Source: a virus (lineage: Duplodnaviria > Caudoviricetes). From it: 63,616 bases of DNA. The position numbers were made by a program, and so were the translations under genes. Of the stretch, positions 36,590 to 55,577 are shown piece after piece. Under the pieces are notes generated by a model that ran no database searches, was not told the origin of the DNA, and saw only the letters and a list, made by a program, of their open reading frames with translations. Each line of letters opens with the position of its first letter. Position 1 is the stretch's first letter. The stretch spans positions 1 through 63,616 of the IMG/VR virus record IMGVR_UViG_3300011114_000226, one strand, 5' to 3'.

Positions 36590-36704
36590 AGTTTTCCTAT
36601 GTTATTAATTAGTGCTATCTCATGCAAACGACAGATAGCGGTGCCGTATTGTTGATGTGACTAAAGGGGAGGCTTTAGGTCACCCTACTTGCATTGTAGG
36701 TACT

Positions 36705-36780
36705 TGGTGGGCTACTCGCGGTTATATAATAGCAAAAATACCATCACGAATTTTCATATATAAATAAAGTGCTTTCGCCC
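36705..36780 (-). ncRNA. Candidate structured RNA with a loop-E/sarcin-ricin-like internal loop
   Basis: GGGC-GAAA-GC...GC-GAGUA-GCCC-ACCA closing a long hairpin in intergenic DNA. Confidence 0.4.
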
Positions 36781-36787
36781 GTTGACT

Positions 36788-37054
36788 CTATATGACTGAT
36801 AATAATAGCAGTATAGCTACCACTACGGCAAACATTATTTTACTGTTTCTATCTTCATTCTTTTCAAAGTTATCTTGTTTGTATGGTGCGCCCCATGCTT
36901 CTCTTGCTGAACGCGGTGTAGGTCTATCAAACGCATCGGGATTAAAAAATCTCCAGCCTTTCTTAGCATTCTTTTTAAATACTTTCATTTGCCATGATTC
37001 AAATTCTCGTATAGCCATTCTTGCACTCGGACTAAAGTTACTTGTATTACTCAT
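36788..37054 (-). CDS. Hypothetical protein with C-terminal transmembrane helix
   Basis: AAGGAG RBS before ATG 37054 (MSNTSNF); TPRSAREAWG; hydrophobic tail. Confidence 0.6.
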   Translation of the reverse strand: MSNTSNFSPSARMAIREFESWQMKVFKKNAKKGWRFFNPDAFDRPTPRSAREAWGAPYKQDNFEKNEDRNSKIMFAVVVAILLLLSVI

Positions 37055-37055
37055 A

Positions 37056-37265
37056 TCAATTCTCCTTTTTCTTTTGGTAGCTTTCAAATTCGTTTCGGCA
37101 TTGAATTGAACACCAACGTCGGTCATCCTTAATCGGTTCTTCACACCAGATACATGCCCCTGTCTGATTAGAAGGTTTTTTGATTTGTTCATGTGCGTTC
37201 CTTATACCGACATCGATGGCGTGTTGCATTAAATCATTAGCTACGTCGGCGTCATCTCCCATCAT
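37056..37265 (-). CDS. DksA/TraR-like C4 zinc-finger protein
   Basis: N-terminal DDADVAN acidic tip; CIWC...RRWCSIQC. Confidence 0.7.
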   Translation of the reverse strand: MMGDDADVANDLMQHAIDVGIRNAHEQIKKPSNQTGACIWCEEPIKDDRRWCSIQCRNEFESYQKKKEN

Positions 37266-38330
37266 ACGTTATATTTCATCCCTTGCCTTTTTGTATTTGT
37301 TTCTGAGGTATTATTAAAATACCCATTCCACTTGGTATTTGCCCCTTTAGGTAATGCTTTAGGTAATTTAATTAAACCTTTTTTATCTAGCTCTCTTATC
37401 CTTATGGCAGTTCCTGTGGCGTTTAATACAATTTGATTACGCGTTGCGTTTGGATACTTTTCCATATACTGATTTACTGCTTCGATGATTTGCTCATCTG
37501 TTTTTTTGCTATTCATTAAAACAAACACTCCCCTACTAATTTAAATAAATCTTCTTTAACCTGTTCTACTTTCTCAAGTCTGATTACTTTAGCATGAGGA
37601 TTCTTTTCTGTAAACCATTTAGCTTCCTTGACAGACCATCTATATTGGCGTATGACTTCACCCTCATCGTCCACTACTGCATAACTAAATGGAATCATGG
37701 TGCTAAAGTTCTTACTTCAAAACATTCAAGGTGTGACTTCACATAAAAGTTTGGTCTAATCTCTTCATAGAGTTCGCCTTGCACACACTTAAGATTCATA
37801 CTATATTTCTTTTGCACATGAATAGATTGCATGATTGCCCATGTAAGTAGCGCGCCTAATATAAATCCTACTATGATAAACCCTGTGCCTTCGTATTTTT
37901 TATCCATCATACTCTCCTATATTGTCTGTATATTCTACACATTTTCTTGCCTTGTGCAACATTGACTAAATTACATTTTGTGATAGGTTTATTTTGTGCG
38001 ATTAGGTATTGCTCACCCGCCAACTGAATGCTACCTTGCACAGCTATGTTGGTTGCTATCTCAGCACACCCTGTTAAACTAAAGACCATTAAAAGCTTCA
38101 GTAAGTCTTTGTGTAGACTCCCGATAACTTTTAATTCCTGTAATCTTTTCAGCATTTGCTTCGTCTTTATATAATGGGGTGATCGTAATATAATGTTTCT
38201 TATTAGGAAGGTCTCGTATCCACGACAACTCTTTGGGGCGGAACTGTGTTATCGATGACCATACTAAATCACCATTAACATTGAATTCCTCCGTTGACCA
38301 TGCGTATGGTTGTTTAAGGGTTTCTTGCAT
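37262..38330 (-). other. Run of small hypothetical genes: 37262-37528, 37516-37698, 37695-37910, a lipoprotein-like ORF ending at 37907, and 38079-38330
   Basis: Overlapping, coupled - strand ORFs; LLMVFSLTGC lipobox-like motif in the ORF ending at 37907. Confidence 0.55.
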
Positions 38331-38700
38331 ATTTACTTCCGCCTTGTTTATAAAATATTAAATTCGACCATTTTACTACAGGTTGCAATCCTGTCCATGA
38401 TCTTGGTTTCTTTATTGTTGTGTCATGAAAGTGAGTGGCTCCATAACTATAATCTACTTCTAATCTATGTAATACTTTGTATGCTATGTTTCTATATTCT
38501 TGTCGGATCACCGAAGGTGGCTTGGTTAAACCATACCAACTAAACTGCGCGGGTCTCTTCATCTCATAACATACGTTCCTATGATTAAAATCAGCTCTAC
38601 GCATTAAAACGTAGCCTACGGCGATTTGCGCTTCGCGTGGCTCATGAGCGGACTCCATGTAAATGGTTGTGGCTAGGCACAATAAGGCTTGGTCAAGCAT
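38314..38700 (-). CDS. SleB-like cell wall hydrolase (Hydrolase_2)
   Basis: CLATTIYMES..E...QIAVGYV..R...QFSW...GATHFH. Confidence 0.85.
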   Translation of the reverse strand: MLDQALLCLATTIYMESAHEPREAQIAVGYVLMRRADFNHRNVCYEMKRPAQFSWYGLTKPPSVIRQEYRNIAYKVLHRLEVDYSYGATHFHDTTIKKPRSWTGLQPVVKWSNLIFYKQGGSKYARNP

Positions 38701-38741
38701 AAGCTTCCCCCTTCTTCTTTATCACTGGTTTCAGTAATCTT

Positions 38742-39029
38742 TTAGGATTGGTTCTCTTCGTGAGAAATTAATTTGTCTAGATACCATCGGGCTTTTTTTA
38801 AGTCCTCGATACCGTTCTTGAATTTGTATCTCCAAATATACTTAATGACGTTAGCTACGCAAACTGCGCTGATGCCTATCAATCCTTTAGTAGATTCTTC
38901 AATAGCGTCGATGCACTCAATCTTGCCTTGAGTGTAGTGTGATGGGTGGTTAACATTGTCTCCTGCACCCGTATGTTTTACTGCTTTACTTCCTGTGTAA
39001 CTATGTAATATCTTCTTTAACCTAGTCAT
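38742..39029 (-). CDS. DUF3310-family protein
   Basis: DNVNHPSHYTQGKIECIDAI...NVIKYIWR...EDLKKARWYL. Confidence 0.85.
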   Translation of the reverse strand: MTRLKKILHSYTGSKAVKHTGAGDNVNHPSHYTQGKIECIDAIEESTKGLIGISAVCVANVIKYIWRYKFKNGIEDLKKARWYLDKLISHEENQS

Positions 39030-39313
39030 TCAATCTCCTTTACTAGAGCTAATAGTGCCTCTATATTATCCTCATTTACCACGATTGCCAAGCCCTGATT
39101 GCGTTGTATCTCTTTTATGTTGTGTTTTTGCAACAACGTAGTTTCGTTCTTTCCGGCTTTACATTCGATACCAATGAACTTTCCTTTATAGCAAGCGATG
39201 ATATCCGGCACACCACTCCTACCAAATCCCCCACTCATCGGGGAAAAGTGATATGCGCCAATGTCATCTAATATCTTCTTAACTTGCTTTTTAACTTTGG
39301 CTTCGGGTTTCAT
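39026..39313 (-). CDS. VRR-NUC domain nuclease
   Basis: PEAKVK...SGVPDII...FIGIECKA...LQ. Confidence 0.85.
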   Translation of the reverse strand: MKPEAKVKKQVKKILDDIGAYHFSPMSGGFGRSGVPDIIACYKGKFIGIECKAGKNETTLLQKHNIKEIQRNQGLAIVVNEDNIEALLALVKEIE

Positions 39314-42209
39314 ATGGTAGGTATGATGTTAAGTTCTGATTGACTCGATGTCCATATGCTACCGGCTTCGTTACCTTCATCGTCACTCATAGCGACTATC
39401 CAATGACCATCTTCAAACTCAATAACAACGCCATTCTTAGTCCATGCTAAGTCCTCAGTCTCCCTATCGTTTAGGTATCTTACACGTCGAATGGTTTTAC
39501 CGACGAGAAAGTTACTTGCTAGGTTACCCCAATGTTCTCTGAGTTCTGCTTTGCTTTGTTCAACTAGTTCTTTGTTTTCTTCCATCTTGTTTCTCCTTTT
39601 TAAATCTTTCTGCGCCTGTGGTTATCATGCGAGCGTATGCACTTGCGTCTTCCAACGCACTATCTTCAAATAGTGATTGCTCTTGTATTGCGTATTCCAA
39701 GTCTTGATCAATCGTCACATTTACCTCCGATACATGCACGCGCGATGATTTCATTTTCTATATCGTTGTATGCGTCTGCTTGCACAAGGTGATCTGCGTA
39801 TTTCTTTTGTCTGTCGTATAAACTATGCTCAACTTCCGTTGCATATGCTTTGACAACCATGCCCTTTTCTCGTAACGGCTCGGCGATAATGGTGGTGACG
39901 TGATCACTTGGTTCTACACCCCATGTCTTTACTTCTTCATACTTTGTTTCTTCCATGCTTACTTCGACTACTACGCTAAACTTAATCATACTTCCTCCTT
40001 AATGTATTGCATCTCTGTTCATGTGCCTATCTAAAATCTGATCTAACTCTTTTTTCATTTCGATAAGTTTGATAGCCCTTTGCTGACATTCTTGCACCTC
40101 GCCTATCGACATGTTCCTTGCTATCTCTAGTGCTAACTTAGTAGATTCGTCAGACTCGGCATCACTTGGTGCCACGACTGCTCTTACCATAGCTTCTACT
40201 AATGCATCTTCTTTAGTCGTAATCATCTTATCACCATCACAAGTAAAAGAAACAAGTTAATACCAAGTGAAACAACCGCACAAGTTCTTAGTCGTCTGTA
40301 ATGTTCTTTGTTAATTGGTGTGTATTCGCTCATGTAAATTTCTCTATCATAATCCATGCTACTCATCATTCTATGTTTTGGTCTTTGGCTCATTTCTTAT
40401 CTCCACTAATTAAGTTAATGATCTCTGCTTTTGCTTGTTCTTTGCCATCTGCTAATCCTAGTTCGTATGCTTCATCAACAAAGTATCTAATCTCGTTAAA
40501 CTCTTTGTCGTATCGTTCTGCCATTCCTTTTTGCACTTCTTCCATAATTTTAGTTGTCGCCATTCTTTTTCTCCTCAAAGTTTTTTAATGATTGCATATA
40601 CTGATTTGTTGCAAAGTTAATACCTCTTACAATACCTAGTCGCATCGCATCATAAAACATCTTGGCATCTTTCTCTGACCTTGTTCTATTATGCGTCTCA
40701 ACATACTCGTAATACTCAGCTACCGCTACTTCTATAATGTCTTCCTCAAACTTGCGTTTCTTTTCTTCGTTGATCTGATGTTGTGTCATTTAAAAATCCT
40801 CCTTACTCCGTCAAAGATACCTAGTAAATCATTAGGTTTTAAATCGTCCTTGTTGAATGCAAACGGCGTCTTCCTGCCATTCGTGTGTATGACATAGCCT
40901 GTCACTACTACTTGTTCTACTATGTATTGCTTTTCTTTTTTAGTAGTCACCATCGGGGTCTCCATATTTCTGTGCTTGGTGTTCTAGTATATCACGGTTG
41001 TATTCATACTCAACCTCATCTAAGAATCCCTCGATGTCACTGCCCGCTTGTCTAAATGCTTCCGGTAGTGCTATCTCTTCTATTCTGCCGTCTTCCCATT
41101 TAACCCCAATCCACCATGATTTAATGCGTACAGGTTCTTGTGGTTCGGGTGGGTCTAAGTCTCTTTCTAAATCGCTCATGTTGTTTCCCTTTCAAAGTAG
41201 TTCATACATTGTTCGTAGATACCATTAAATAAGTCTTGTCCGTATTCTGTATTACTTGTGTTGCCATCTTCGTCATCTTGGATACACTTATGTTCTATGT
41301 CTAAAATAAATAATACATCATCATAGATTGCTTCTGCTAACTCACCCGCTTTTTCATTAGGTGAATTGTCTATCATTTCTGTGCCGTTAATAAGTTTCAT
41401 GTTGACGCCCCTTTTACTCGTTTGTCTATGTAAGATAATTCTTTTTCATAGTCCTTTATTTCTTTGCCTGTTAAAAAATGGTTCTCGCCACAACAACTGC
41501 CTTTCCACTCGGGCACTTCATCATAGCAATAAACACAATACGTCACGCCGTCATCTAAATCGTCAAACTCGGTTTCAACTGCGGGTTCAAACTTCTCTGC
41601 CGTCCATTCTTTACTCATTCTTTGTCCTCCTCAATTTCAAATCCGCCTAACCATTTTGGGGTTTTGTTATCTTCTAACTCCTCGTAAAAATCTAATTGCA
41701 AGTTCACGTTGTTTGTGCTTAGTTCTTCTATGATATCGCTTAGCTCTTCCTCATTCTCCGCTTTGATTTCTACGTCTTGCCATGCGTTATAAAACACTCT
41801 TACTTTATATTTCTTTTTCATACTGCCTCCTCTTTAATATCTTCCATTCCCACATGCTCTATTTGAAAATCTCGATAGTCTTCGGGTTCTAAGTATGACA
41901 TGCGTTCATAAAATTCTTTCATGGCTTCCTCTTGTGTTTCTGCTTCAATGTCCGTTTGATATATGGCTCTTTCGCTCGCTGTTATAGTGAATCGTTTCAT
42001 CTGACTTCCTCCTCTATATATTCAACCTCAATCACCGCTAGTCCAAATTCATGGCGTGCTTTTTCCATTGCATGCTCTTCGTTCTTAGCATGAATTAAAC
42101 CTAGTCGCCTTCCCTTTTTATCTAGTGCCTCATACCATAACTCTGTCATATACCCTCCGTATAATTGTGTTGTCACTCTGTTAATCTCATTAAATAAGTT
42201 CATGCTCAA
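39310..42209 (-). other. Cluster of about 14 small, mostly acidic hypothetical early/middle genes
   Basis: Tightly coupled - strand ORFs of 55-95 aa, many with GGAG(G)-type RBS; includes untracked ORFs 40223-40393 and 40786-40953. Confidence 0.6.
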
Positions 42210-42236
42210 CCTCCCTTTGTGTTTACCTCGTTAATC

Positions 42237-42292
42237 AATATACGCTTGCGTTTTTATCATGTCAAGTATTATTTACTAATTAATTTTATGGG
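42237..42292 (-). promoter_or_regulatory. Strong sigma70 promoter with AT-rich UP element
   Basis: TTGACA-N17-TATATT; upstream AAAATTAATTAGTAAATAATA is nearly identical to the upstream element of the 45530 promoter. Confidence 0.8.
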
Positions 42293-42421
42293 GGTTTTGA
42301 TAAGCGCTAAGTCTCGCCCTCGCCTTCCCTCTAGGTTTAAACCCCGCTCGCTATGCCTCTTCCCTCGCCCGCCTTCTTTAACCACTGGTTTCAAATTCTT
42401 TTTAAGCCTCGCCCGCCAAAT

Positions 42422-42457
42422 AAAAAAAGAGGGCATGGGGTTTTAATCCATGCCCTT
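42422..42457 (-). terminator. Rho-independent terminator of the earliest operon
   Basis: AGGGCATGG-loop-CCATGCCCT followed by a T run on the - strand. Confidence 0.8.
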
Positions 42458-42506
42458 GAGATGTCACTAAGTGACAGGGTAAACTAATTTATAAAGCTCG
42501 ATCATA

Positions 42507-43193
42507 CTATGCAATCACAAAACCCGTTTTGTCTTGTCGCGCCTTGCCCTTAGCTTTCAATCCTACAATTATATTCTTATCCTCTATAAATCTAGCGTCG
42601 TGATCGTCGCCGTTGATAACAGGGCGCCCCTCAAATTCAACCGGTAAGATTTTAAACACCGTCGCCACGCGCATGTTATTACTTAGCGCTTGCCTATTAA
42701 ACTTAATGAAGGATTGTACCCCGCTATATGAAAAAGTAAGATCATAATTATCCGGTAAGTTTTTCCTATTCGGGTTTTTGGTATAGTCATAAAATTGTAG
42801 CTCGGGAAAAAGCTCGAATATATTAAACTCACCTAGCATAATCTTTTCCCATTCGATGTCACTCGTTCCATTAAGTCGAACCACGGCTTGCATGTTTTTC
42901 TTTTTTGCTTGCGCTTTTAACTTGTGAATATCCTCGATCAATTGAGCCATAAACTCGCCCCTGTTATCGTTGAATAGTTTTGCTTTCCTCAACCTCGCGC
43001 TTTTAACGTTGCTAAAATTGCCCCGCCCCGCCGTATTAAGACAGGCAACGTGACACTCGGCGACCTTAGCAAAGGGGCAAAGGTTTACCCCGCTTAAATC
43101 ATAGGGCGCTAGGTATAAAATACCCGTTAAGAATCCCGCCTTATTACTTTTAATTGTTTTGGTGTCACTGTTTACGCTTAATAATTTATACAT
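42507..43193 (-). CDS. Gp88-like Cys-cluster phage protein
   Basis: LYLAP...CPFA...C...CLNTAGRG, RLNGTSDI, FYDYTK, GDDHDARF, GLKAKG. Confidence 0.7.
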   Translation of the reverse strand: MYKLLSVNSDTKTIKSNKAGFLTGILYLAPYDLSGVNLCPFAKVAECHVACLNTAGRGNFSNVKSARLRKAKLFNDNRGEFMAQLIEDIHKLKAQAKKKNMQAVVRLNGTSDIEWEKIMLGEFNIFELFPELQFYDYTKNPNRKNLPDNYDLTFSYSGVQSFIKFNRQALSNNMRVATVFKILPVEFEGRPVINGDDHDARFIEDKNIIVGLKAKGKARQDKTGFVIA

Positions 43194-44474
43194 GATTCAC
43201 CCCTTAAAATTTTCTCATATGGTTTTATCTCGTTTAATAGCTCGTCTTTGAATAGATCGTCTTGAATTTTTAATTTAATTCTTATCTTATTTATTTTTCT
43301 TTTAAGGCTTTTCGGCATGAGTGCTTTTAATATCTCGTCCGCTAGTTTTTCTTTTTTCATTTTATAAATACCCCTCTAAACCCGCGTCGACCATTTGCCA
43401 TACCGCGTCGCTTATGTTTTTATAAGTTTCAATTTCCTTATCGGTTATGAATCCTCGGTCGCCCTTTTCGGCATAGTCACCTTGAACCACGATCCTATCA
43501 CCCGCCCACGTTCCTATTAGTTCATGATCTCGAAAATCACCCCCGCCCCGCCCGTTGCTATTTGCTACTAACATAAAAAGCGCGGTCGTCGACGTTTTCG
43601 TGCCGACTTGTTCGGCGAGCTTTAAAAAGTCCGCTCTAAAATATTCTTTTTTATCTATGTTATATACTTTATGATATTGACCCATGTTATTCACCCCTTT
43701 TAAAATATTGGTGTTTTTCTATCCATTGCCCCTCTATTGGTAAATGCAATGATTCTTTTTCTTTTTCGGTAAATTTATCCGCTTGCTGTAAGTCGTCGAC
43801 CCATCCAATATCGTTTGACCATAATAAGTCGTTATCACTTTGCGCCTGTATAATATAAATGTTTTCCATGCTATGCCCCTTGTAATTAAGATAACTCAGT
43901 TAAAAAAGCCTCAAGTTCGCGCCCGTGGTTATCAGATAATAAAACTATTTGATCGGTTATAAACTCGCGTATTACATAATAGCCCGTGGATATATTGTTA
44001 TCGATATCCTTATAAAAAACCTCGTCGCCTTGAAAATATTCCATTATAAATACCCCCCGTTTTTGCTTAGCTCTTCCGCTAAGTTACCACCTATTATTGA
44101 TTTTATTGAGCCTCGCCCTGTAATATGCCCTAGGTTATTTTCTAACGCTATCCAGTTTTCGCCCCATGATATCTCTATTAATGGGTAACCCTGTTTAATT
44201 GCCTCAATTGCGCACTTTTTAACTTGCGCGTAACTCGGTTTTTTACCTTCAAAATAATATTCAAATAACATAATTACACCCCCCTTTTATTAATAAATTT
44301 AATCAATCTTAAATAAAACTTTTTCGCCCTCGCGTGCCGTGATTCAAAAAATAAACTATATAAATAGGTTACGCGCTCAAAATTATTTTGCATGAATGCT
44401 AAGTCCTTATAAATTGCCCCGTCCCGTTTCATGTAATGAGTATAAAAAATGTTATTCATGCTCGACCCCCTCAA
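43178..44474 (-). other. Small early hypothetical genes: 43178-43360, 43362-43685, 43687-43869, 43886-44044 (untracked, 52 aa), 44044-44271, 44274-44459
   Basis: Coupled ORFs, each preceded by a GGGG-type RBS. Confidence 0.6.
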
Positions 44475-45306
44475 CGTTTAATAAATAATTCACGGCTTTT
44501 TGAGCTTTCGCGCTTGCGCTTATAATGAATTTTTTGTCGCCCCTTAGCGCTTTAATCCATGAATCAATGTAACTCGCATGCTGTAATTGAGCATTAATGC
44601 CGTTATACGCGCAAAGCATTGAGGCGCCTAGCTCGGCGATAAGCTCTTCAAAGGCGTAACCCTCGGACCCGAACGAATCATTTTTTAAACGTGCTAAGCG
44701 TTTTTCCGATCCTGTATAATGTATTAATTCATGATAAGCGGTCGCGTAATAATCCGCGCTAGTATTAAATGATTCTTTTTCGGGCAGGTTTATTTGATCG
44801 AGTGAAGGTATATAACATGCGCGCCCCCCGCCGTGTTTTATCGTTGCCCGTGTATTTTTAATGAATGCCTCGCATGATTCTAAAACCTCGAATTCGGGCT
44901 TGATCTCTTTTACTTGATCGGGTAACCCGTCGACCGCGTCCCTATTGAATACAGTATAACTTTTTAACATAGGTATTTTTTTGAGGTCACCCGTCGACTT
45001 GTCTTTTATCTCGAGGGGCTTATAAAATATGACGTTGACGCCTTTCGAACCCTTGCGAACTTGCGCGCCTAGGTTCTGAGCTTGCTTATATGTCAACCAT
45101 TCATTCGAGGCGCCGAACTCGCCCGTTGATTGTAATAAACTAAGATAGAAAAAATTAACGCCGTTATAAATATTTTTAGTGACTGGATTAAACGGTAAGC
45201 CCTCGCCCGCCTTCCATGGTTTCACCCACGGCGCCACGCCCTTTTCTAACTCAGTTAAAATTCTATTTGTTATATTTTGCGCGATATCATTATTTAATTG
45301 ATTCAT
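44452..45306 (-). CDS. ardC: ArdC-like antirestriction ssDNA-binding protein
   Basis: PWVKPW, YNGVN, WLTYKQAQ..G.QVRKG.KG, YTVFN, HELIHYTG, YAFEELIAELG, HASYIDSW. Confidence 0.88.
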   Translation of the reverse strand: MNQLNNDIAQNITNRILTELEKGVAPWVKPWKAGEGLPFNPVTKNIYNGVNFFYLSLLQSTGEFGASNEWLTYKQAQNLGAQVRKGSKGVNVIFYKPLEIKDKSTGDLKKIPMLKSYTVFNRDAVDGLPDQVKEIKPEFEVLESCEAFIKNTRATIKHGGGRACYIPSLDQINLPEKESFNTSADYYATAYHELIHYTGSEKRLARLKNDSFGSEGYAFEELIAELGASMLCAYNGINAQLQHASYIDSWIKALRGDKKFIISASAKAQKAVNYLLNVEGVEHE

Positions 45307-45317
45307 GTTTTTACCCC

Positions 45318-45470
45318 TTAATAGATATTATGTAATTCAAAAAATATGGCATTGCTATGATTAAAGCCCTGTAATTGAGCTAACTTAACTAAGTCATCAA
45401 AATGCCTCTCAATAAACCATTCGCTAAAATAGTCATCATTGGTTATTAATTTATTTATATTCCAGTCCAT
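45318..45470 (-). CDS. Hypothetical early protein, 50 aa (untracked)
   Basis: MDWNINKLIT...; AAGGGG RBS; first ORF after the promoter. Confidence 0.55.
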   Translation of the reverse strand: MDWNINKLITNDDYFSEWFIERHFDDLVKLAQLQGFNHSNAIFFELHNIY

Positions 45471-45529
45471 TTTTTTACCCCTTTTTATAGTTTTATTTTA
45501 AAAACCCCGTGTTTACAGGGTTATCGCTC

Positions 45530-45590
45530 AATATACGCTCATTTTTTAAATATGTAAACTATTATTTTACTAATTAATTTTAAGGGGGGT
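45530..45590 (-). promoter_or_regulatory. Sigma70 early promoter with UP element
   Basis: TTTACA-N17-TATATT; UP element shared with the 42237 promoter. Confidence 0.75.
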
Positions 45591-45608
45591 TATATATAAG
45601 GTATATGT

Positions 45609-45638
45609 AAAAACAAAAAAGGGCGTAATTAAACGCCC
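45609..45638 (-). terminator. Rho-independent terminator
   Basis: GGGCGT-TTAATT-ACGCCC followed by TTTTTTGTTTTT. Confidence 0.7.
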
Positions 45639-45663
45639 CGTAATACTTGATTAAAATACTAGG

Positions 45664-45768
45664 TTAAAACTTATTAAAATGAAAATGTAAGATCGATAAC
45701 ACTGTAATAATGTTAACCAATTGAAACGCTATAAAACCATAGATAAAAGCTTTTTGTTTTTTTGTCAT
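45664..45768 (-). CDS. 34-aa membrane peptide (untracked)
   Basis: MTKKQKAFIYGFIAFQLVNIITVLSILHFHFNKF, followed by its own terminator. Confidence 0.45.
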   Translation of the reverse strand: MTKKQKAFIYGFIAFQLVNIITVLSILHFHFNKF

Positions 45769-45862
45769 GCTATATATACCTCGATAAGTTAAAAAAGTAA
45801 AACTAAGTATTACAATCTTATAAACGTATGAAAAACGAAAATGTAAGACTTATTTTAAAAAA

Positions 45863-46357
45863 TGTTACAGGTTTTTAGTAAACTTAGCGGGTTTTATCGT
45901 GTAAGTCATTGTTTTATAACGTGTTACAGGTGTTACACTATTTCACTTTACTAATAAACACAAAAAACGACGGTTTTAAGCGGGGCTAGGTTTTACTAAG
46001 TTATTGTTTTATATATATAATATATTTTATTATTATTAATTAATTAATGCATAAAATGCAAAATGTTACATGTTACAGGGTTTTAAAATTATATAGCGGG
46101 TTGTTTTTTCTATCGGTTACATTGCGCAAAGAGGGGTCGCGTCGACTTAGTTCTTACCGAGTTTTACAGGGGGGCATACTATGTTTTTACTTGTAACATT
46201 GTAACGCGGGGTTATTACTTAGTTAAAACAAAGTCATAGGCGCGTTACAATCAAGCGTTACATTAATAAACCTTGTAACATCGTTGATTATTAAGCTTTA
46301 TTTTGTTTACTAGGTTTCAAGCAAAGTTTACTAGGTTATAACCCTGTTTTTACTAGG
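45863..46357. repeat. Iteron-like GTTACA array around an AT-rich core, plus three TTTACTAGG copies; candidate origin or packaging region
   Basis: About 11 copies of GTTACA/TGTAAC in both orientations in non-coding DNA at the strand switch. Confidence 0.65.
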
Positions 46358-46570
46358 GATACCCCGCCCCGACCCCCCAAAACCAAGTTGGGACTCCGCT
46401 CGACTTCGTTACACTTTGATCTGCACAAACAATCTGCAAAAAAGTCCAAATCTCAAACCCACCCCCTATGAAAAATAAAGGGTCAATCAAAAAATTTCTA
46501 TAAAAAAATTAGTCAAATATCGTATGTAAAGTTTCATTCAAAGGAAGGGAAAGGGTAGAACGAATGAAAA

Positions 46571-46915
46571 CTAAATAGCTTTAGGATCGAAGTTATATAA
46601 CTCGGAGTAAACGTCTTTAATACGTAGGAACTTCTCGCCGTGTTGATCAAAGTCATCGTCGCCCTTATAGTACAGGTGCAAATGGATCATTTCGTGGAGA
46701 AGCGTTTGGAAAATGGTGATAAAGTGACCACAAGAACCAGAACTTATTTCAATAGCCATCTCTACTTCGTCAAAACAGCCATATATAGTAGGGTTCTTAA
46801 TGACTCGGAACTTGACTTTGTTAGACTTAGGCATCTTTAGGGTGTTAAAAGGGGGTAGCTGGCATGCCATGTTGTACAAAATCTCTAGGTTCTTAGAGGT
46901 TAACGTGGTTTTCAT
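46571..46915 (-). CDS. SprT-like zinc metalloprotease
   Basis: TLLHEMIHL...HGEKF. Confidence 0.75.
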   Translation of the reverse strand: MKTTLTSKNLEILYNMACQLPPFNTLKMPKSNKVKFRVIKNPTIYGCFDEVEMAIEISSGSCGHFITIFQTLLHEMIHLHLYYKGDDDFDQHGEKFLRIKDVYSELYNFDPKAI

Positions 46916-47053
46916 CAGAAAGTCCAGGTTAAAACAACAAGGGCTAAGTTAGGCTGAGTAAAAAGAAGGGTTATCATGGTAGTATTTTACCAAAAACTAG
47001 GTTAGAATAGTCAAATTAGCTGCAATTAATTCCAAAAGGTGTAACAGCGACAC

Positions 47054-47752
47054 ATGAATCAAGAAAATATCCAAGTAGATCAAGGACATAACTCACCTTC
47101 CGATGTGGTTATTATTCCGTACATAGAAGAAAACGTTCCTTTACCCCGAAATTCCCACGAAGCACTACCTAGTATGACTAATGAGAAGGAAGTTATGGTC
47201 AGAGCGACAACAATTAAGGAACTTAGTGACTTAACTGGCGAAGAAATTGCGCCAGATGCAAAACATAGGCTGGACGCAGAAGAAATTGCGCGGGATATGG
47301 TCACAAATCCACAGAAAAAGCAAGAATTTATAAATTACGCAAATGAAACGATGGCATACTTAGGTGGCATGGTGGGAACCTATAACCATATGATCGTGAA
47401 TGACCTAGCAGAGTTAAAGTTATACGTGGTTAATAAGTTGGTCGAGATAGTACAAGATGAAGAGAGTAATCGCAAAGAACAAATCACAGCACTTCGTTCT
47501 ATCGGAGAAGTAGACGGCGTTGATGCATTCAAGAAAAAGACAGAAGTCCTACATAAGGTTGAGAGTATTGATGAAGTTGAGAAAGAACTGATTAAACTGT
47601 TGAATGAATTTAAATCTCAAGGGCTCATAAAAGCAGATCCTCAAACGATAGACGCAGAACTAGTTGAAGAGCCTGTTATAGAAGAGGTAAAAGAAAAATC
47701 ATTTGACGAGATTGTACAAGAAGCGGTAGATGGAAGTACAACAGGAGACTAA
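47054..47752 (+). CDS. Putative terminase small subunit
   Basis: Directly upstream of and overlapping TerL; ALRSIGEVDGVDAF motif. Confidence 0.55.
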   Translation: MNQENIQVDQGHNSPSDVVIIPYIEENVPLPRNSHEALPSMTNEKEVMVRATTIKELSDLTGEEIAPDAKHRLDAEEIARDMVTNPQKKQEFINYANETMAYLGGMVGTYNHMIVNDLAELKLYVVNKLVEIVQDEESNRKEQITALRSIGEVDGVDAFKKKTEVLHKVESIDEVEKELIKLLNEFKSQGLIKADPQTIDAELVEEPVIEEVKEKSFDEIVQEAVDGSTTGD

Positions 47753-49286
47753 GGGTGAGAAGTTAACTCCCGCGATGGTGGCAGAGTTAATGAAAGCGGT
47801 TCCGACCATGTCGCCGGAGCTGAAGCGTAGTACACTAGAGAAGATAAGAGTATTTAAAAAGAACTGGGTACAAGATCACGGCAAGGATAACTTTTTAGAT
47901 TTCATTGCACACGTCTACCCAGGCTACATGGTAGGAGCACATCATAGAAAACTGGCACAGATATTTGAAGACATTGCTGCGGGAAAAAAGAAACGCGTTA
48001 TTGTTAACATCGCTCCGCGACATGGGAAGTCAGAGCTTATTTCTTACTTGGCACCGGCATGGTTTTTGGGTAAGTATCCACACAAGAAAGTTATTATGGC
48101 ATCTCATACTGCTGACTTGGCAGTTAACTTTGGTCGCCGTGTCCGTAACCTTGTGGGTAGTGACGCTTACAAGGATATCTTCCCACAGGTAGAACTACAG
48201 GCTGACTCAAAGTCTGCGTCACGATGGGGAACAAACTTTAATGGGGAATATTTTGCTATTGGTGTTGGTGGTGCCCTCGCTGGTCGTGGGGCTGATTTGT
48301 TTATCATTGATGATCCACATTCCGAGCAGGACGCCAAGTTGGGACGATCGGATGTTTTTCTGCCTGCTTGGGAGTGGTTTCAGTCTGGTCCATTACAACG
48401 TCTTATGCCTGGCGGTGCGATTATTGTAGTGATGACGCGGTGGTCTAAGCTAGACTTGACAGGTCAGATTGTGAACCAGATGGTTAAGAATGACGAAGTA
48501 GATAACTGGGAAGTGGTAGAGTTTCCGGCAATCATAGAAGACAAACATGGTGAGATGAAACCGTTGTGGTCAGAGTTCTGGAGTTTAGAAGAGTTATTAA
48601 GTAAGAAGGCAGCGTTAGATGTACGGTACTGGAATTCTCAGTACATGCAAAACCCAGTGTCAGAAGAGGGTGCCTTAATTAAAAGAGAGTGGTGGAAGAT
48701 ATGGGAGAAGGATGATCCGCCTCAATGTGAATTTACCATTATGTCTCTAGATGCCGCACAGGAAGCCAATACAAGAGCTGACTTTAACGCATTAACTATT
48801 TGGGGTGTATTTTTTAACGAAGAAACCAATAACTATAATATAATACTATTAAATAGTATTAAGCAACGACTAGAGTTCCCTGAGCTTAAAGAGCTTTGTA
48901 TACAAGAGTATAAAGAGTGGGAACCCGATGCATTCTTAGTGGAAAAGAAATCTAACGGTGCGGCGCTCTATCAAGAGTTTAGACGCATGGGCATTCCTGT
49001 CGGTGAGTTCACACCGGGTAAAGGGCAAGATAAAATAAGTCGAGTGAATGCAGTGTCAGACTTGTTTAGAAGTGGTATAGTGTGGGCTCCCGATAGACGA
49101 TGGGCTCATGAAGTAATTGAAGAGTGTAATGATTTTCCTAGTGGTGCGAATGATGACTTGGTTGATAGCACAACACTAGCATTGATGCGGTTTAGACAAG
49201 GTGGCTTTATACGTCTACCAAGTGATGAACCAGAAGATATACCAGGATTTAGAAGCAGTTCTCAAAAGAAATTATACGCGTTATAA
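47730..49286 (+). CDS. terL: Terminase large subunit
   Basis: APRHGKS Walker A, GRGADLFIIDDP, VMTRW, SLDAA, VEKKSNG, DDLVDS. Confidence 0.92.
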   Translation: MEVQQETKGEKLTPAMVAELMKAVPTMSPELKRSTLEKIRVFKKNWVQDHGKDNFLDFIAHVYPGYMVGAHHRKLAQIFEDIAAGKKKRVIVNIAPRHGKSELISYLAPAWFLGKYPHKKVIMASHTADLAVNFGRRVRNLVGSDAYKDIFPQVELQADSKSASRWGTNFNGEYFAIGVGGALAGRGADLFIIDDPHSEQDAKLGRSDVFLPAWEWFQSGPLQRLMPGGAIIVVMTRWSKLDLTGQIVNQMVKNDEVDNWEVVEFPAIIEDKHGEMKPLWSEFWSLEELLSKKAALDVRYWNSQYMQNPVSEEGALIKREWWKIWEKDDPPQCEFTIMSLDAAQEANTRADFNALTIWGVFFNEETNNYNIILLNSIKQRLEFPELKELCIQEYKEWEPDAFLVEKKSNGAALYQEFRRMGIPVGEFTPGKGQDKISRVNAVSDLFRSGIVWAPDRRWAHEVIEECNDFPSGANDDLVDSTTLALMRFRQGGFIRLPSDEPEDIPGFRSSSQKKLYAL

Positions 49287-49297
49287 GGAAATGAATT

Positions 49298-51829
49298 ATG
49301 GCAATTAATATGGATAAAAGTTTATCACAAGCTCCTCAAGGTATAGAAGAGTTAGCAGCAGGCGCACCCGACTTAAGTATTGAGATTGAAAATCCTGACA
49401 GTGTAACTCTGGATGACGGTAGTATGGAAATTACAATCGTTCCTGGTAAAGAAGTAGGCGACGATGAATTCAATGCTAACTTAGCAGAAGAACTTGATGA
49501 AGGCACGTTAACAGAATTATCTGGAGATTTAATTGGCGAGTATGATTCTGATATCTCATCTAGAAAAGATTGGTTAACTACTTATGTAGATGGTTTAGAA
49601 TTACTTGGATTAAAAGTAGAAGAACGAACAGAACCATGGGCAGGTGCGTGTAACGTTTATCATCCACTGATGACAGAAGCACTTGTGAAATTCCAAGCAG
49701 AAACCATGATGGAAACATTTCCAGCGGCAGGTCCAGTCAAAACACAAATCGTAGGTAAACAAACAAAAGAAAAAGAAGACGCAGCTGAACGTGTTAAAGA
49801 TGACATGAACTATCAGTTGACTGACATGATGCCTGAGTACAGACCTGAACATGAACGTATGTTATGGGGACTAGGTTTAGCAGGTAATGCGTTTAAAAAA
49901 GTATACTACGATCCATCGTTCGAAAGACAAGTAGCTATGTATGTTCCTGCAGAGGACATGGTGGTTCCATACGGTGCATCTAATTTAGAAACAGCAGAAC
50001 GTGTCACACACGTCATGCGTAAGACAAAGAACGAATTAAGAAAATTACAAGTAGCAGGATTTTATCGTGATGTAGATTTAGGTGAACCGTTCTTAGATAT
50101 TGATGAAGCTGAGAAAAAGATTGCTGAGAAATTAGGTTTCAATCCTACAGAAGATGACCGCTACAAAATACTTGAGATGCATGTCTTAAGAGATATTCCA
50201 GAGCTTAGCGATAGTGAAGATGGCATAGCCCTTCCGTATGTTATTACAATTGAAAAGGGAACAGGCACAATACTCTCTATTCGCCGTAACTGGAACCCAA
50301 CTGATAACAGAAAATTAAAACGTCAACACTTTGTTCATTATGGATACATACCGGGCTTTGGTTTTTATTGTTTTGGTTTAATTCATTTGATAGGTGCTTT
50401 CGCCAAATCAGGTACTATGATCTTACGTCAACTTGTTGACGCGGGTACCCTATCAAACTTACCAGGCGGTATGAAGTCAAGAGGACTTCGTATCAAAGGA
50501 GATGATACTCCGATTGCACCAGGCGAATGGCGTGACGTTGATGTACCAAGCGGTGCTATCCGTGACAACATTTTACCGTTACCATATAAAGAGCCTTCAC
50601 AAGTACTTAATCAATTGATGAATCAAATCATCGAAGAAGGACGCCGCTTCGCTTCAGCAGCAGATATGAAAGTATCTGATATGAGTGCAAACTCTCCAGT
50701 AGGTACAACTCTAGCTATATTAGAAAGAACATTAAAAGTGATGTCAGCTGTACAAGCTCGTATTCACTATGCAATGAAACAAGAGTTTAAATTATTAGCT
50801 GGCATTATTCGCGATTACACACCACCAGAATATAACTACGAACCAGAAATTGGTGATAGACGTGCTAAACAATCTGATTATGATTGCTGTGAAGTTATTC
50901 CTGTATCAGATCCAAACGCGGCAACAATGTCTCAAAAGGTTGTGCAATATCAAGCTGTTATGCAAATGGCACAAGCTAATCCACAAATCTATGATCAAGT
51001 AGAATTGAATCGTCAGATGTTAGAAGTACTAGGTGTTAAGAATATTGGAAAACTTATTCCTAATGCAGACGACAAGAAACCTAAAGATCCCGTATCTGAA
51101 AATATGGATATTATTAATGGTAAACCTACTAAAGCATTTATCTATCAAGATCATCAAGCTCACTTAGCAGTTCATATGGCAGCTATGCAAGATCCTAAGT
51201 TAATGCAAATGATGAGTCAAAACCCAATGGCTCAACAAATGCAAGCCGCGGCATTAGCACATATTAACGAACATATTGCGTTTGAATATAGAAAACAAAT
51301 TGAAGAACAATTAGGTGCAGAGCTACCAAAACCGGGCGAAAACTTACCGGAAGATGTTGAACTAGAATTATCTAGATTAACTGCAGCAGCAGCACAAAAA
51401 CTTCTAGCTAAAGATCAAGCAGAAATGCAACAACAACAAGCGCAACAACAACAGCAAGATCCTTTAGTTCAAATGCAACAACAAGAGTTACAACTTAAAG
51501 CTCAAGACTTACAAATTAAAGCTCAAAAAACTCAAGCAGATATTCAACTTGATCAAGCTAAACTTGAACTTGAAAAAGAAAAACTTGCTTCTCATGAAAG
51601 ACTTGAAGGTATTAAAGTTGGATCTAAAACAACGCTAGATAAGAATAGACTTGAAGGAGAACAACTAATACAAGGTGCCCGTTTAGGTATGGACGCAGAG
51701 TTTAAAAAACAAGAACATAGCCATAGAGAAAAAGAAACAGCTATTAATGCGGTCGATCGCTTAATGGAACATAAACATAAAGTAGATGATAGAAATCTAA
51801 CAAAGGAACAAACACAACCTAAGGAGTAA
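49298..51829 (+). CDS. Portal protein (P22-like, with Gln-rich barrel)
   Basis: 843 aa immediately after TerL; GNAFKKVYYD; C-terminal QQQ coiled coil. Confidence 0.85.
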   Translation: MAINMDKSLSQAPQGIEELAAGAPDLSIEIENPDSVTLDDGSMEITIVPGKEVGDDEFNANLAEELDEGTLTELSGDLIGEYDSDISSRKDWLTTYVDGLELLGLKVEERTEPWAGACNVYHPLMTEALVKFQAETMMETFPAAGPVKTQIVGKQTKEKEDAAERVKDDMNYQLTDMMPEYRPEHERMLWGLGLAGNAFKKVYYDPSFERQVAMYVPAEDMVVPYGASNLETAERVTHVMRKTKNELRKLQVAGFYRDVDLGEPFLDIDEAEKKIAEKLGFNPTEDDRYKILEMHVLRDIPELSDSEDGIALPYVITIEKGTGTILSIRRNWNPTDNRKLKRQHFVHYGYIPGFGFYCFGLIHLIGAFAKSGTMILRQLVDAGTLSNLPGGMKSRGLRIKGDDTPIAPGEWRDVDVPSGAIRDNILPLPYKEPSQVLNQLMNQIIEEGRRFASAADMKVSDMSANSPVGTTLAILERTLKVMSAVQARIHYAMKQEFKLLAGIIRDYTPPEYNYEPEIGDRRAKQSDYDCCEVIPVSDPNAATMSQKVVQYQAVMQMAQANPQIYDQVELNRQMLEVLGVKNIGKLIPNADDKKPKDPVSENMDIINGKPTKAFIYQDHQAHLAVHMAAMQDPKLMQMMSQNPMAQQMQAAALAHINEHIAFEYRKQIEEQLGAELPKPGENLPEDVELELSRLTAAAAQKLLAKDQAEMQQQQAQQQQQDPLVQMQQQELQLKAQDLQIKAQKTQADIQLDQAKLELEKEKLASHERLEGIKVGSKTTLDKNRLEGEQLIQGARLGMDAEFKKQEHSHREKETAINAVDRLMEHKHKVDDRNLTKEQTQPKE

Positions 51830-51832
51830 CAC

Positions 51833-52027
51833 ATGGACCAAACGCTAGAGCTATTATTGTCTCGAATAGATGATCAGCGCAAAACAGTTTTAAATAATTT
51901 AGGAGACGGAGCGGCAAAAGATTTTGCTTCGTACCAAAATATGACCGGATATATTCGAGGTTTATCCGTAGCAGAAAGTTTGATTAAAGACCTCGCACAA
52001 AGAATGGAGACGTTTGAAGATGAGTGA
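51833..52027 (+). CDS. Hypothetical protein
   Basis: AAGGAG RBS; lies between portal and GroES-like gene. Confidence 0.6.
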   Translation: MDQTLELLLSRIDDQRKTVLNNLGDGAAKDFASYQNMTGYIRGLSVAESLIKDLAQRMETFEDE

Positions 52028-52466
52028 ACAAATCCTTACGATGAATAAGAACTTGGTTGATGCTAATGGCAGACCAATTATTATTCCAACAGTAAATGAA
52101 GTAGATGCAGAAGATATACCAATTGAAGAAAGAGGTTTACAACTTCCAGACCCAAAAGGCTATAGAATTTTGTGTGCAATTCCAGAAGCAGAAGAAACCT
52201 ATAAAGGCGGTATTGTTAAAGCAGCCGGTGCTAAATCTATAGAAGAACATTCGACTGTAGTTTTATTTGTAGTAAAAGTAGGCGACTTAGCTTATAAAGA
52301 TGAAGTCAGATTTCCTACAGGTCCATGGTGTAAAGAAGGTGATTTTGTTTTAACGCGTGCATACGCGGGTACTAGATTTAAAATTCACGGAAGAGAATTC
52401 CGCATTATTAACGACGATACAGTTGAGGGGGTTGTTGAAGATCCTCGCGGCTACACTCGCGCATAA
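52020..52466 (+). CDS. GroES-like co-chaperonin
   Basis: P.GYRIL...GGIV...VVKVGDLAY...EGDFV...YAG.RF...EFRIINDD.V.GVV. Confidence 0.8.
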   Translation: MSEQILTMNKNLVDANGRPIIIPTVNEVDAEDIPIEERGLQLPDPKGYRILCAIPEAEETYKGGIVKAAGAKSIEEHSTVVLFVVKVGDLAYKDEVRFPTGPWCKEGDFVLTRAYAGTRFKIHGREFRIINDDTVEGVVEDPRGYTRA

Positions 52467-52476
52467 GGAGTAATAT

Positions 52477-53499
52477 ATGGCTGACGTAAAAGATGGAGAT
52501 ATTGTTTTTGAATATCCAGATGATGACGAAATACCAGGTAATAAGTTTCCTGATGAAAAAGAAGTTTCTATTAAAACTGAAAAAAATGAAGTTAAGATAG
52601 AAACAAAAGCAGACGATATTGATCTTGAAATCGAAGACGATACCCCAGCGGCTGATAAAGGTAAAGAACCTTTACCTAAAGATAAAGTAGAAGAATTAGA
52701 AAATGACACTTTAGAAGATTATTCTGACCGTGTTAAACAAAGAATGGCGCAGCTTAAAAAAGTTTGGCATGACGAAAGACGTGCTAAAGAATCAGCTGAC
52801 CGAGAACGCCAAGAAGCAATTAAATTTGCTCAACAAATTGCTGAAGAAAATAGGAAACTTAAAACTACTTTAAGTAGTGGTGAAGAGACTTATCTACATA
52901 CATTAAAAGGTGCGTTAGAACAGCAATTACATTCAGCTAAACGAGACTATCGTGAAGCCTATGATTTAGGTGATTCTGAAAAGATTATTGAAGCGCAACA
53001 AAAAATGAATGATGCGCAATTTAGACTGTCAGAAGCGCAAAGATATACCCCTCAATATAAAAACACTTTACAAGAGGATGAAAAAGAGGTATATATACAG
53101 GAAAACAGACCTCAAGCACCAAAACCAGACAATAAAGCACTTGCTTGGCAAGATAAAAATGATTGGTTTGGTAAAGACGAAGAAATGACAAGTCTTGCTT
53201 TAGGTGTACATGAAAAATTAGTTAGAAATGGTATAGATCCCACATCTGACGAATATTACCGTCGTATAGATAGTACGATGCAGAAACGATTCCCAGAATA
53301 CTATGGGGATGCAACGCTAGACGAGGACCAACCCGCCCAGCGCACAAAACCTTCGAATGTAGTTGCTCCGGCAACGCGTAGCACCGCGCCAAAAAAAGTG
53401 CGTCTGACGAAGACACAAGTAGCGTTAGCCAAGAAATTTGGTCTAACACCGGAACAATATGCAAGAGAAACTTTAAAATTGGAGAATGCAAATGGATAA
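52477..53499 (+). CDS. Capsid scaffolding protein
   Basis: Acidic coiled coil; C-terminal LTKTQVALAKKFGLTPEQYA; gene position. Confidence 0.7.
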   Translation: MADVKDGDIVFEYPDDDEIPGNKFPDEKEVSIKTEKNEVKIETKADDIDLEIEDDTPAADKGKEPLPKDKVEELENDTLEDYSDRVKQRMAQLKKVWHDERRAKESADRERQEAIKFAQQIAEENRKLKTTLSSGEETYLHTLKGALEQQLHSAKRDYREAYDLGDSEKIIEAQQKMNDAQFRLSEAQRYTPQYKNTLQEDEKEVYIQENRPQAPKPDNKALAWQDKNDWFGKDEEMTSLALGVHEKLVRNGIDPTSDEYYRRIDSTMQKRFPEYYGDATLDEDQPAQRTKPSNVVAPATRSTAPKKVRLTKTQVALAKKFGLTPEQYARETLKLENANG

Positions 53500-53944
53500 T
53501 ACAAACAGACAAGATCGTGAATTACAAACAAGAGAAGAATTTCAAAGACCTGATAGCTGGAAACCTGCATCATTATTGCCTGAATTTAAAAAGGTACCTG
53601 GTTGGGCTTATCGATGGATTAGAACAAGTCTTCTTAACGACGCTGATAATCTAAATGTTTCTTCAAAAATGCGTGAAGGATGGGAACCCGTTAAATTAGC
53701 GGACCACCCTGAAATGAGAATAATGGTTGACCAAAATTCCCGTTTTAAAGACGGCGTTGAAATTGGTGGACTATTATTATGCAAGATCCCAGAAGAGTTT
53801 GTTGCACAACGTAAGGCTTATTATGAGACAAAATCAAAACAACAAGCCGATGCAGTTGACAACAGCTTTATGAAACAGAATGATCCTCGTATGCCTCTCT
53901 TCGCAGAGTCAAAAGCAACGACTTCATTCGGTAAAGGTAAATAA
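53486..53944 (+). CDS. Conserved head-module protein
   Basis: GWAYRWIR...REGWEPV...GGLLLCKIP. Confidence 0.6.
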   Translation: MQMDNTNRQDRELQTREEFQRPDSWKPASLLPEFKKVPGWAYRWIRTSLLNDADNLNVSSKMREGWEPVKLADHPEMRIMVDQNSRFKDGVEIGGLLLCKIPEEFVAQRKAYYETKSKQQADAVDNSFMKQNDPRMPLFAESKATTSFGKGK

Positions 53945-53967
53945 TATAAACATTTAAGGAGATTAAA

Positions 53968-54591: not shown

Positions 54592-54607
54592 TTAAGGAGA
54601 AAAGAAC

Positions 54608-55522: not shown

Positions 55523-55545
55523 TTAGCAACTGGCTACGTACTACT

Positions 55546-55577
55546 AAGGGACCTGCTTAAAACACAGGTCCTTTTTT
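55546..55577 (+). terminator. Terminator after the major capsid gene
   Basis: GGACCTG-loop-CAGGTCC followed by TTTTTT. Confidence 0.8.

Follow-up and report, generated by a model that had tools for sequence, protein, structure and literature searches.

Why would a phage dispense, over one whole operon, with the four letters that form the core of the canonical Shine–Dalgarno (SD) sequence? The question is raised by IMGVR_UViG_3300011114_000226, a tailed-phage (Caudoviricetes) genome of 63,616 bp that forms one complete virus record and is treated here, over its full length, as the window. GGAG or its complement CTCC occurs 272 times in the window (151 sites on the plus and 121 on the minus strand) and is missing from the 4183 bp between 42211 and 46394, the longest gap in the genome, the runner-up measuring 1850 bp. 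For the 4179 bp from 42215 to 46393, Markov models of order 0, 1 and 2 predict 18.5, 13.7 and 10.0 sites, and extrapolation from the site density outside the zone gives 19.1; none is observed. The zone matches one predicted promoter-to-terminator operon of nine genes (Table 1), the first leftward operon of the genome, which directly adjoins the terminase genes. All nine genes start with ATG and all are preceded by an SD of the GGGG type; among the 86 script-called genes elsewhere, 7 have a GGGG and 30 a GGAG SD (Fisher P = 9.7e-9 for GGGG, block versus rest). The genes that follow, with starts at 42203, 42000 and 41821, have GGGAGG or GAGGAGG. A first-pass annotation, made by eye, had reported the empty zone, the nine GGGG-type SDs and the return of GGAGG in these three genes, and all of this was reproduced by counting, no site having been missed.

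Taken from a single genome, the GGAG statistic is suggestive, not decisive. The count lies below all three Markov expectations; when all 136 four-letter word pairs are ordered by the count expected inside their own largest gap, GGAG comes about fifth. The significance of the absence rests on synonymous-codon permutation and on relatives. Permuting synonymous codons in the nine genes gave an expectation of 12.5 ± 2.75 sense-strand GGAG, with 0 observed, and 0 of 5000 permutations had fewer than four. In four other gene sets used as a control, internal sense-strand GGAG reached 0.53–0.72 of the permuted number, an ordinary deficit; antisense sites were at expectation in three of these sets (0.99–1.01) and numbered 0 against 2.7 in the early2 genes (36.6–42.2 kb). 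A test of strand symmetry within one genome was set aside as underpowered, its antisense expectation being 1.7 and the probability of finding none 0.15.

Relatives were found through close ArdC homologues in IMG/VR and in metagenomes, and through the large terminase gene (terL). Seven genomes (the window, L002, L003, L004, L005, L120 and L040) together contain one GGAG/CTCC site in this zone against 48.1–115.7 expected, and the rule read from the window holds in these relatives. L002–L005 and L120 diverge from the window by 13.5–20.2% of nucleotides in the aligned parts, and have GGAG-free gaps centred on ardC of 3872, 4203, 4024, 2613 and 4355 bp, respectively, each being the largest gap of its locus. 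Random re-dealing of their substitutions predicts 5.4–6.7 new sense and 1.3–2.4 new antisense sites per relative; the sites actually gained in the five relatives are one on the sense strand (in L005) and zero on the antisense strand, for which the simulated total is 9.2. Under a maximal-order model applied to five blocks, no 4-mer is more depleted than GGAG, with 1 site against 37.8. In the pooled relatives, the antisense strand has 0 sites against 4.0–16.8 expected, and the upstream non-coding part has 0 against 2.9–12.9.

L040, whose terL is 97% identical, separates the rule from the genes. Its flanks are homologous to positions 46920–45807, 45665–45471 and 42297–42200 of the window, while the slot that they enclose (L040:1237–3978, minus strand) holds seven genes for proteins of 47–193 amino acids (aa), which have no Pfam family and no detectable homology to the nine genes of the window (best blastp E = 0.14). 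L040 is GGAG-free over 3628 bp and has AAAAGGGGTAAAA-type SDs before six of the seven genes, with GGGAGG as the first SD of its next operon. The GGAG-free rule follows the slot, not the genes. More distant ardC genes (L125, MW202753) are full of GGAG, and the slot is hypervariable among relatives; the genes of the L040 cassette are candidates for alternative anti-defence proteins. Over the seven zones, 50 of 52 listed open reading frames (ORFs) have a GGGG SD and none has GGAG, the ORFs having been listed by hand or by scripts that list only those with an upstream purine-rich motif. In all seven genomes the first SD of the next operon is GGGAGG or GGAGG. Among 80 terL-relative loci, 23 extend at least 5.5 kb upstream, and 5 of these 23 have a gap of more than 2.5 kb in the corresponding place (L040, L041, L045, L068 and L088, of which L041, L045 and L068 are the same contigs as L002, L004 and L005). 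The depletion of GGAG is real and kept by selection, even against the canonical SD, as the first-pass annotation had supposed; the permutation, the divergence of the relatives and the seven-genome count agree on this.

The block is also the centre of a dinucleotide island: the seven most deviant 1-kb windows of the genome all lie at 42.5–46.5 kb. In its coding part the observed/expected ratio of CpG is 1.64 against 0.65–0.89 elsewhere, at unchanged G+C content, so that the impression of a CpG-rich block was correct; the corresponding ratios are 1.52 for GC, 0.75 for AG, 0.68 for CT and 0.64 for TG. CAG/CTG occurs in the zone at 0.22 times its frequency in the rest of the genome and symmetrically, with 14 and 15 copies per strand. 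Relative to the rest, the block prefers the codons GCG (0.48 vs 0.12), GGG (0.29 vs 0.06), AGG (0.34 vs 0.06) and GAG (0.49 vs 0.22); its codons end in G or C in the four-fold families, but elsewhere TTA (0.59), ATA and AAA are used, and CTG stands at 0.01. CpG richness is separable from GGAG avoidance. The early blocks of the related loci L048 and L061 are CpG-rich (1.5–1.8) yet contain 13 and 16 GGAG sites, a normal number for an expectation of about 15, and the zone of L040 is GGAG-free at a CpG ratio of only 1.09. CpG richness was thereby ruled out as the cause of the GGAG loss.

Other short words are missing from a larger early zone. GCNGC has no site there (Table 1), CCNGG has none of its 65 sites in 34034–46924, and local Markov models expect 11–21 and 6–15 sites, respectively. 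GTAC occurs 3 times in 36600–46393 against 22–32 expected, dropping from 8 sites in 46670–47868 to 3 in the next 10 kb; GGNCC occurs once in 31555–48387. These motif-free zones share a sharp edge at 46.4–47.0 kb beside the terminase genes terS and terL, and the late side is site-dense right up to it. The edge, which does not coincide with the switch of coding strand, lies between a small SprT-like gene and a conserved G-rich element, and does so equally in L002–L005 and L120. Such a shared, sharp edge by the terminase genes fits a leading end of the genome. GGCC behaves differently, being absent from all 63,616 bp (64–105 expected under regional Markov models) and also from L002, L004 and L120, with 14 copies in L003 and 10 in L005; this amounts to the classical pattern of a HaeIII-type site avoided throughout the genome, with differences between close relatives. 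Unlike it, the avoidance of GGAG, GCNGC, CCNGG and GTAC is regional and nested, a pattern that whole-genome statistics of restriction-site avoidance miss. GTAC is present in the zone of L004, and relatives avoid different palindromes. No DNA methyltransferase of the families PF00145, PF01555 or PF02086 is encoded by the phage, so that none of those could otherwise protect the late region.

Words in the late genes show peculiarities of their own. The late region (46900–63616 and 1–24319) contains 28 CTGCAG, 22 CAGCTG and 125 GCWGC, where base composition predicts 5.7, 5.7 and 38.7. CCGA/TCGG is absent from 6417 bp of late genes (4431–10848; 17.0 expected at order 1), and GCGA/TCGC from 3821 bp (19536–23357; 18.0 expected). 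The CpG-poor, repeat-rich structural genes may be the source of the last two gaps.

What the empty slot is for can be stated only with graded confidence. By a reading to which we give an even chance, it is a leading anti-defence module purged of motifs recognised by DNA-level defences, in the style of first-step transfer in phage T5. The leading end of the genome would enter the cell first, and the operon would be transcribed from its predicted host-type promoter to supply ArdC, a GP88-family protein resembling radical S-adenosylmethionine (SAM) enzymes, a 107-aa protein and small orphans. Selection would purge short words recognised by putative host DNA-targeting defences (restriction-modification, bacteriophage-exclusion (BREX)-like, type IIS-like or type III-like), and GGAG, or a family of sites containing it, would be one such word. 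The SDs would have been rewritten from AGGAG to AGGGG, in which a G·U wobble would preserve pairing with the CCUCC of 16S rRNA. The remaining genome, with its GGAG sites, would then be protected by the products of the module.

The rewriting would come at little cost to translation. The anti-SD sequence presents a U to the A of GGAG, and this U can also form a wobble pair with G. Computed duplexes with a textbook anti-SD tail, which may differ from that of the host, gave −7.9 kcal/mol for AAGGAGU and −7.2 for AAGGGGU, while other single changes gave −1.0 to −6.5. GGGG thus pairs nearly as well as GGAG and is the cheapest way to destroy the word and yet keep an SD; and since GGAG is the SD core, every SD of the module had to be rewritten from AGGAG to AGGGG.

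Parts of this arrangement have precedents. In conjugative plasmids, ardC lies in the leading region, which enters and is expressed first, among establishment and anti-defence genes; plasmid leading regions are transferred as single-stranded DNA, in contrast to the double-stranded phage genome considered here, and we know of no motif-level rewriting of SDs in plasmids. T5 resists restriction-modification, CRISPR and Ssp systems provided that their sites are absent from its first-step-transfer region (PMC10644984): in T5 and other Tequintavirus phages, anti-defence functions are encoded in a short terminal region that is the first to enter and to be expressed, and sites elsewhere are tolerated. 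The likeness lies in an ArdC-bearing first operon of 4.2 kb that is devoid of motifs abundant in the remainder of this genome. T5 itself has two-step injection, long terminal repeats and an injection stop signal. The present phage, known here from sequence alone, is unrelated to T5, and its avoided word is the SD core, so that all ribosome-binding sites are rewritten. In T7-like phages (Ocr; Murciavirus) the early-injected region is hypervariable and encodes anti-defence genes, and in Murciavirus sensitivity to the type I system Mme2I is decided only by a motif in the first-injected region (PMC12455610); that motif is a bipartite type I site of which there are one or a few copies, as opposed to a 4-mer expected 10–18 times. 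A BREX system with a GGAG-containing site, TAGGAG, exists (PMC6326788). T4 offers a likeness at the RNA level, its endoribonuclease RegB involving the same four letters, in SDs, tied to a temporal class of genes (PMC1702504). The polarity is reversed, since RegB inactivates the early mRNAs of T4, which contain GGAG, and here the first operon is without GGAG and the following operons have it. Literature searches on restriction-site avoidance with early genes, on GGAG with RegB and on SD and restriction avoidance in phages turned up no report of SD rewriting in a leading module. Motif avoidance in first-entering DNA is already known from T5 and T7-like phages; here the avoided word is the SD core, which makes the selection directly legible in the ribosome-binding sites.

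Several observations weigh against a module purged at the DNA level. No restriction enzyme specific for plain GGAG is known to us. The gaps of GCGA, CCGA, CACG, GTAC, CATG and CCAG are comparable to the GGAG gap in this genome. At 4.2 kb, the GGAG-free zone falls far short of the palindrome-free zone of 11–13 kb, a mismatch that needs an extra assumption, either that the GGAG defence is neutralised earlier or that avoidance of the SD core is too costly over more genes. The rule is lineage-restricted: 16 of 21 terL-relative loci analysed have normal GGAG counts in this place, including relatives whose ArdC is 54–58% identical to that of the window. The ends of the record share an 89-bp repeat, which resembles an assembly overlap and is uninformative on physical ends, and if packaging were headful, the position of a motif in the first-injected DNA would be irrelevant (PMC12455610). 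The per-strand expectation in the zone is 8.9–13.7 for GGAG on the sense (mRNA) strand and only 1.1–4.8 on the antisense strand, so that absence from the second strand is not significant by itself; the argument of the first-pass annotation that absence from both strands favours a DNA target over an RNase is weak, only 1–5 antisense sites being expected per genome. Pooling antisense and non-coding sites over relatives yields a modest hint, as the genomes share ancestry and are not independent. The well-powered GGAG evidence is thus confined to the sense strand, both in the coding sequences and in the nine rewritten SDs, and fits DNA and RNA readings alike; moreover, the avoided word is exactly the four letters at which T4 RegB cuts RNA, in the SDs of early genes (PMC1702504). 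These last points could also be explained by an early GGAG-specific endoribonuclease, encoded by the phage or acting as a host toxin or abortive-infection system, to which first-operon transcripts would be immune for want of GGAG, SDs included. We consider such RNA-level evasion unlikely, though it deserves serious attention: the zone stops precisely where the next transcription unit has its first SD, its coding part is bracketed by a predicted promoter and terminator, and the rule tracks the expression slot over gene ancestry in L040. A six-frame search of the whole genome for the RegB family (PF10715) found no member at E ≤ 1, the 107-aa protein has no nuclease-like fold match, and PADLOC and Pfam are blank on the orphans. 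A phage-encoded nuclease would furthermore hit the phage's own later genes, 30 of 86 of which have GGAG in the SD window. The zone also extends past both predicted signals, by about 830 bp on the upstream side of the promoter and by about 200 bp beyond the terminator, and antisense and non-coding sites are missing in all relatives as well, albeit with modest power. Finally, the symmetric words GTAC, GCNGC, CCNGG and CAG/CTG are depleted in the same region, so that DNA-level selection does act here. The target of the GGAG avoidance could be RNA as well as DNA. Three points lean towards DNA: DNA-only words are missing in the same place, the sharp edge is shared, and the antisense and non-coding sites are absent in the pooled genomes.

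Two further explanations do without a defence. The uniform AAAAGGGGTAAAA sites might be a matter of translational design, either as a regulatory signal (a repressor or activator site, or a set initiation strength) or as recombination linkers for cassette exchange, with the lack of internal GGAG being a sharpened form of ordinary avoidance of SD-like words. The sites are indeed strikingly uniform within and between genomes, even before non-homologous genes, and internal sense GGAG is scarce genome-wide. Scaling the permutation expectation of 12.5 by the genome-wide deficit nonetheless leaves about 7–9 internal sites where none is seen. Initiation strength would barely change, since GGGG pairs almost like GGAG, and the absence from the non-coding leader and the antisense strand, the co-located palindrome avoidance and the dinucleotide island would all be left unexplained; design of this kind seems quite improbable. 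Still less probable is a neutral history, in which a horizontally acquired module of foreign composition happens to be without GGAG. In composition no part of the genome deviates more than the block, whose codon usage is alien and whose slot is hypervariable. Against this, 10 sites are expected from its own composition and 12.5 from its own codon usage, and 13.5–20% divergence should have yielded 5–7 sites in each relative, where one is seen in all of them. The non-homologous L040 cassette obeys the rule at a low CpG ratio while the CpG-rich blocks of L048 and L061 break it, GGAG abounds in more distant ArdC genes, and a codon usage with CTG at 0.01 and TTA at 0.59 fits no natural high-GC pattern. 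The permutation, the substitutions of the relatives and L040 have already largely refuted this explanation.

A broader proposal, which is possible and which we put forward as speculative, spans DNA and RNA targets. Some freshwater bacteria might possess a defence that recognises the SD core, be it an RNA nuclease or a DNA system with the 4-bp site GGAG, and this phage lineage might answer with a GGAG-free, GGGG-translated "immune" expression slot that launches ArdC, the GP88-family protein and small proteins before the GGAG-rich remainder is expressed. The prediction is a host defence that recognises GGAG in DNA or RNA, which could be sought in freshwater bacteria. A motif-free zone, a switch of SD type and a sharp edge on the terminase side would together make a signature, obtainable from sequence, for leading anti-defence modules in uncultured phages. 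It flags as candidate anti-defence genes those of the GP88 family (more than 4700 clusters), of the 107-aa family (at least 1200 relatives) and of the L040 cassette.

Table 1. Features of the GGAG-free zone and its surroundings in the 63,616-bp window (a full stop marks features without a strand; SD, Shine–Dalgarno sequence).
Feature	Position	Strand	Details
Zone without GGAG or CTCC	42215–46393	.	coincides with dinucleotide-signature island
Larger early zone without GCNGC	35650–47019	.	177 sites elsewhere
SprT-like zinc-metallopeptidase gene, small	46571–46915	-	HEMIH; between motif-free zone and terminase genes
Conserved G-rich element GCGGAGTCCCAACTT.GTTTTGGGGGGTCGGGGCGGGG	46358–46397	-	right edge of zone; contains last GGAG
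A+T-rich leader, mostly non-coding	45560–46393	.	inside zone; repeated TGTTACAGG and TTTACTAGGTT motifs
Possible hydrophobic ORF, 34 aa	45664–45768	-	in leader
Terminator-like hairpin	45620–45639		in leader
Promoter-like TTTACA-17-TATATT	45530–45558	-	upstream of the operon's first gene; 10/12 matches
Gene 1, acidic orphan, 50 aa	45318–45470	-	SD aaaaaggggtaaaaaaATG
ArdC-like anti-restriction protein, 284 aa	44452–45306	-	SD aaggggtaaaaacATG
Orphan, 61 aa	44274–44459	-	SD gagggggtcgagcATG
Orphan, 75 aa	44044–44271	-	SD aaggggggtgtaattATG
Orphan, 52 aa	43886–44044	-	SD acggggggtatttataATG
Orphan, acidic, 60 aa	43687–43869	-	SD caaggggcatagcATG
Conserved protein of unnamed family, 107 aa	43362–43685	-	SD aaaaggggtgaataacATG
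Orphan, 60 aa	43178–43360	-	SD agaggggtatttataaaATG
GP88-family protein (PF17338), 228 aa	42507–43193	-	SD taaggggtgaatcATG
Predicted intrinsic terminator after last gene	42422–42456	-	9-bp G+C-rich stem, then U7 run
Promoter-like TTGACA-17-TATATT, next operon	42237–42265	-	11/12 matches; GCGTATATTGA common to both promoters
First SD (GGGAGG) and start codon of next operon	42201–42214	-	GGAG-free zone ends here

The operon is delimited by predicted signals. It lies between the two best sigma70-like matches of the minus strand, and the total of promoter-like matches in the region does not exceed that of shuffled sequences. The first-pass description of an early operon with an anti-restriction gene is accordingly borne out for ArdC, joined by a predicted sigma70-type promoter, and is held back by this overall number of matches. 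A 64-nt stretch at the terminator has a minimum free energy of −21.2 kcal/mol (z = −3.75). At the other end, the conserved element ends in GGGGGGTCGGGGCGGGG (46378–46358, minus strand), exactly at the edge of the motif-free zones, and is a possible cis site, perhaps a terminus, a packaging site or an operator. The SprT-like gene just outside the zone contains GGAG, GTAC and CCNGG and has no recognisable SD. Between the terminator of the operon and the next promoter lies a purine-rich spacer (42290–42420, minus strand) of repeated GGCGGGCGAGG-like units, full of GAGG and GGGA and never GGAG; speculatively, its position invites comparison with an injection stop signal.

The second gene of the operon encodes a protein with an ArdcN domain (PF08401, E = 6.9e-32) and a zincin domain of the MPTase-PolyVal type (PF18818, E = 7.3e-44) with the motif HELIH, and matches phrog_7245, an anti-restriction protein. 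Its identity by domain content as ArdC, with ArdcN and a C-terminal zincin metallopeptidase carrying HExxH, is confirmed. The last gene product matches PF17338 over residues 10–227 with 146 bits (cut-off 24.4). This GP88 family is large (4737 clusters at E ≤ 0.001), with more than 120 clusters of close relatives at 85% identity or above, and its fused forms add only a mycobacteriophage L5 gp82 domain, carried by one of them; PF17338 is not named in the literature searched. The invariant residues include Cys39, Cys47 and Cys51, which are spaced as CX7CX3C and not as the CX3CX2C cluster motif of radical-SAM enzymes. A structure model (predicted local distance difference test (pLDDT) 95.4) retrieved radical-SAM enzymes in all 22 best VIA-align rows, with Z of only 5.4–7.1, and nothing at E ≤ 0.001 with Foldseek. 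A sequence search of the PDB gave a chance-level match only, and the protein atlas gave only the protein's own family. The modelled resemblance to radical-SAM partial barrels is a lead, not membership. The 107-aa protein is conserved in all the relatives with ArdC and GP88 and belongs to a family that numbers at least 1200 proteins and has 24 invariant positions; it has no Pfam family, and its model (pLDDT 88) has no fold match (best Z 3.3, best Foldseek E = 2). PADLOC returned nothing for ten proteins, and Pfam finds nothing in the orphans.

The phage is a complete, freshwater, HTVC023P-related genome. By terL, its nearest named phages are DSL-LC04 (53%), 023Pt_psg01 and the Pelagibacter phages HTVC027P and HTVC023P (about 50%), and MinM2/Pag-Yong1 (42%). 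The runs that hold its DNA are labelled as viral, riverine, lake and freshwater metagenomes, and one as marine. A megablast of the block against 50,697 phage records gave no match, and around terL the gene order of DSL-LC04 and HTVC027P is different, leaving no equivalent slot for comparison. The literature on the HTVC023P group gave no information on physical ends. Contig ends were considered as a clue to the termini and rejected, their distances from terL being roughly uniform and assemblies also breaking at hypervariable junctions.

According to PHROG and Pfam scans, terL (47730–49286) is followed by the portal gene (49298–51829), and the virion genes occupy the plus strand from the portal onward, wrapping round to about 24.3 kb. 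The minus strand from 46.9 down to 24.3 kb carries genes for a DNA polymerase (36589–34724), a helicase, a primase-helicase and two 2-oxoglutarate/Fe(II) (2OG-Fe(II)) oxygenases, and many small genes. No phage RNA polymerase was found among the proteins scanned, a tRNA scan found no tRNA in the window, and Rfam gave a single chance-level match in 41.5–47.5 kb. The two 2OG-Fe(II) oxygenase genes are adjacent in the replication module (32450–33620, minus strand), and a gene for a SleB-type cell-wall hydrolase lies amid the small early genes (38314–38700, minus strand).

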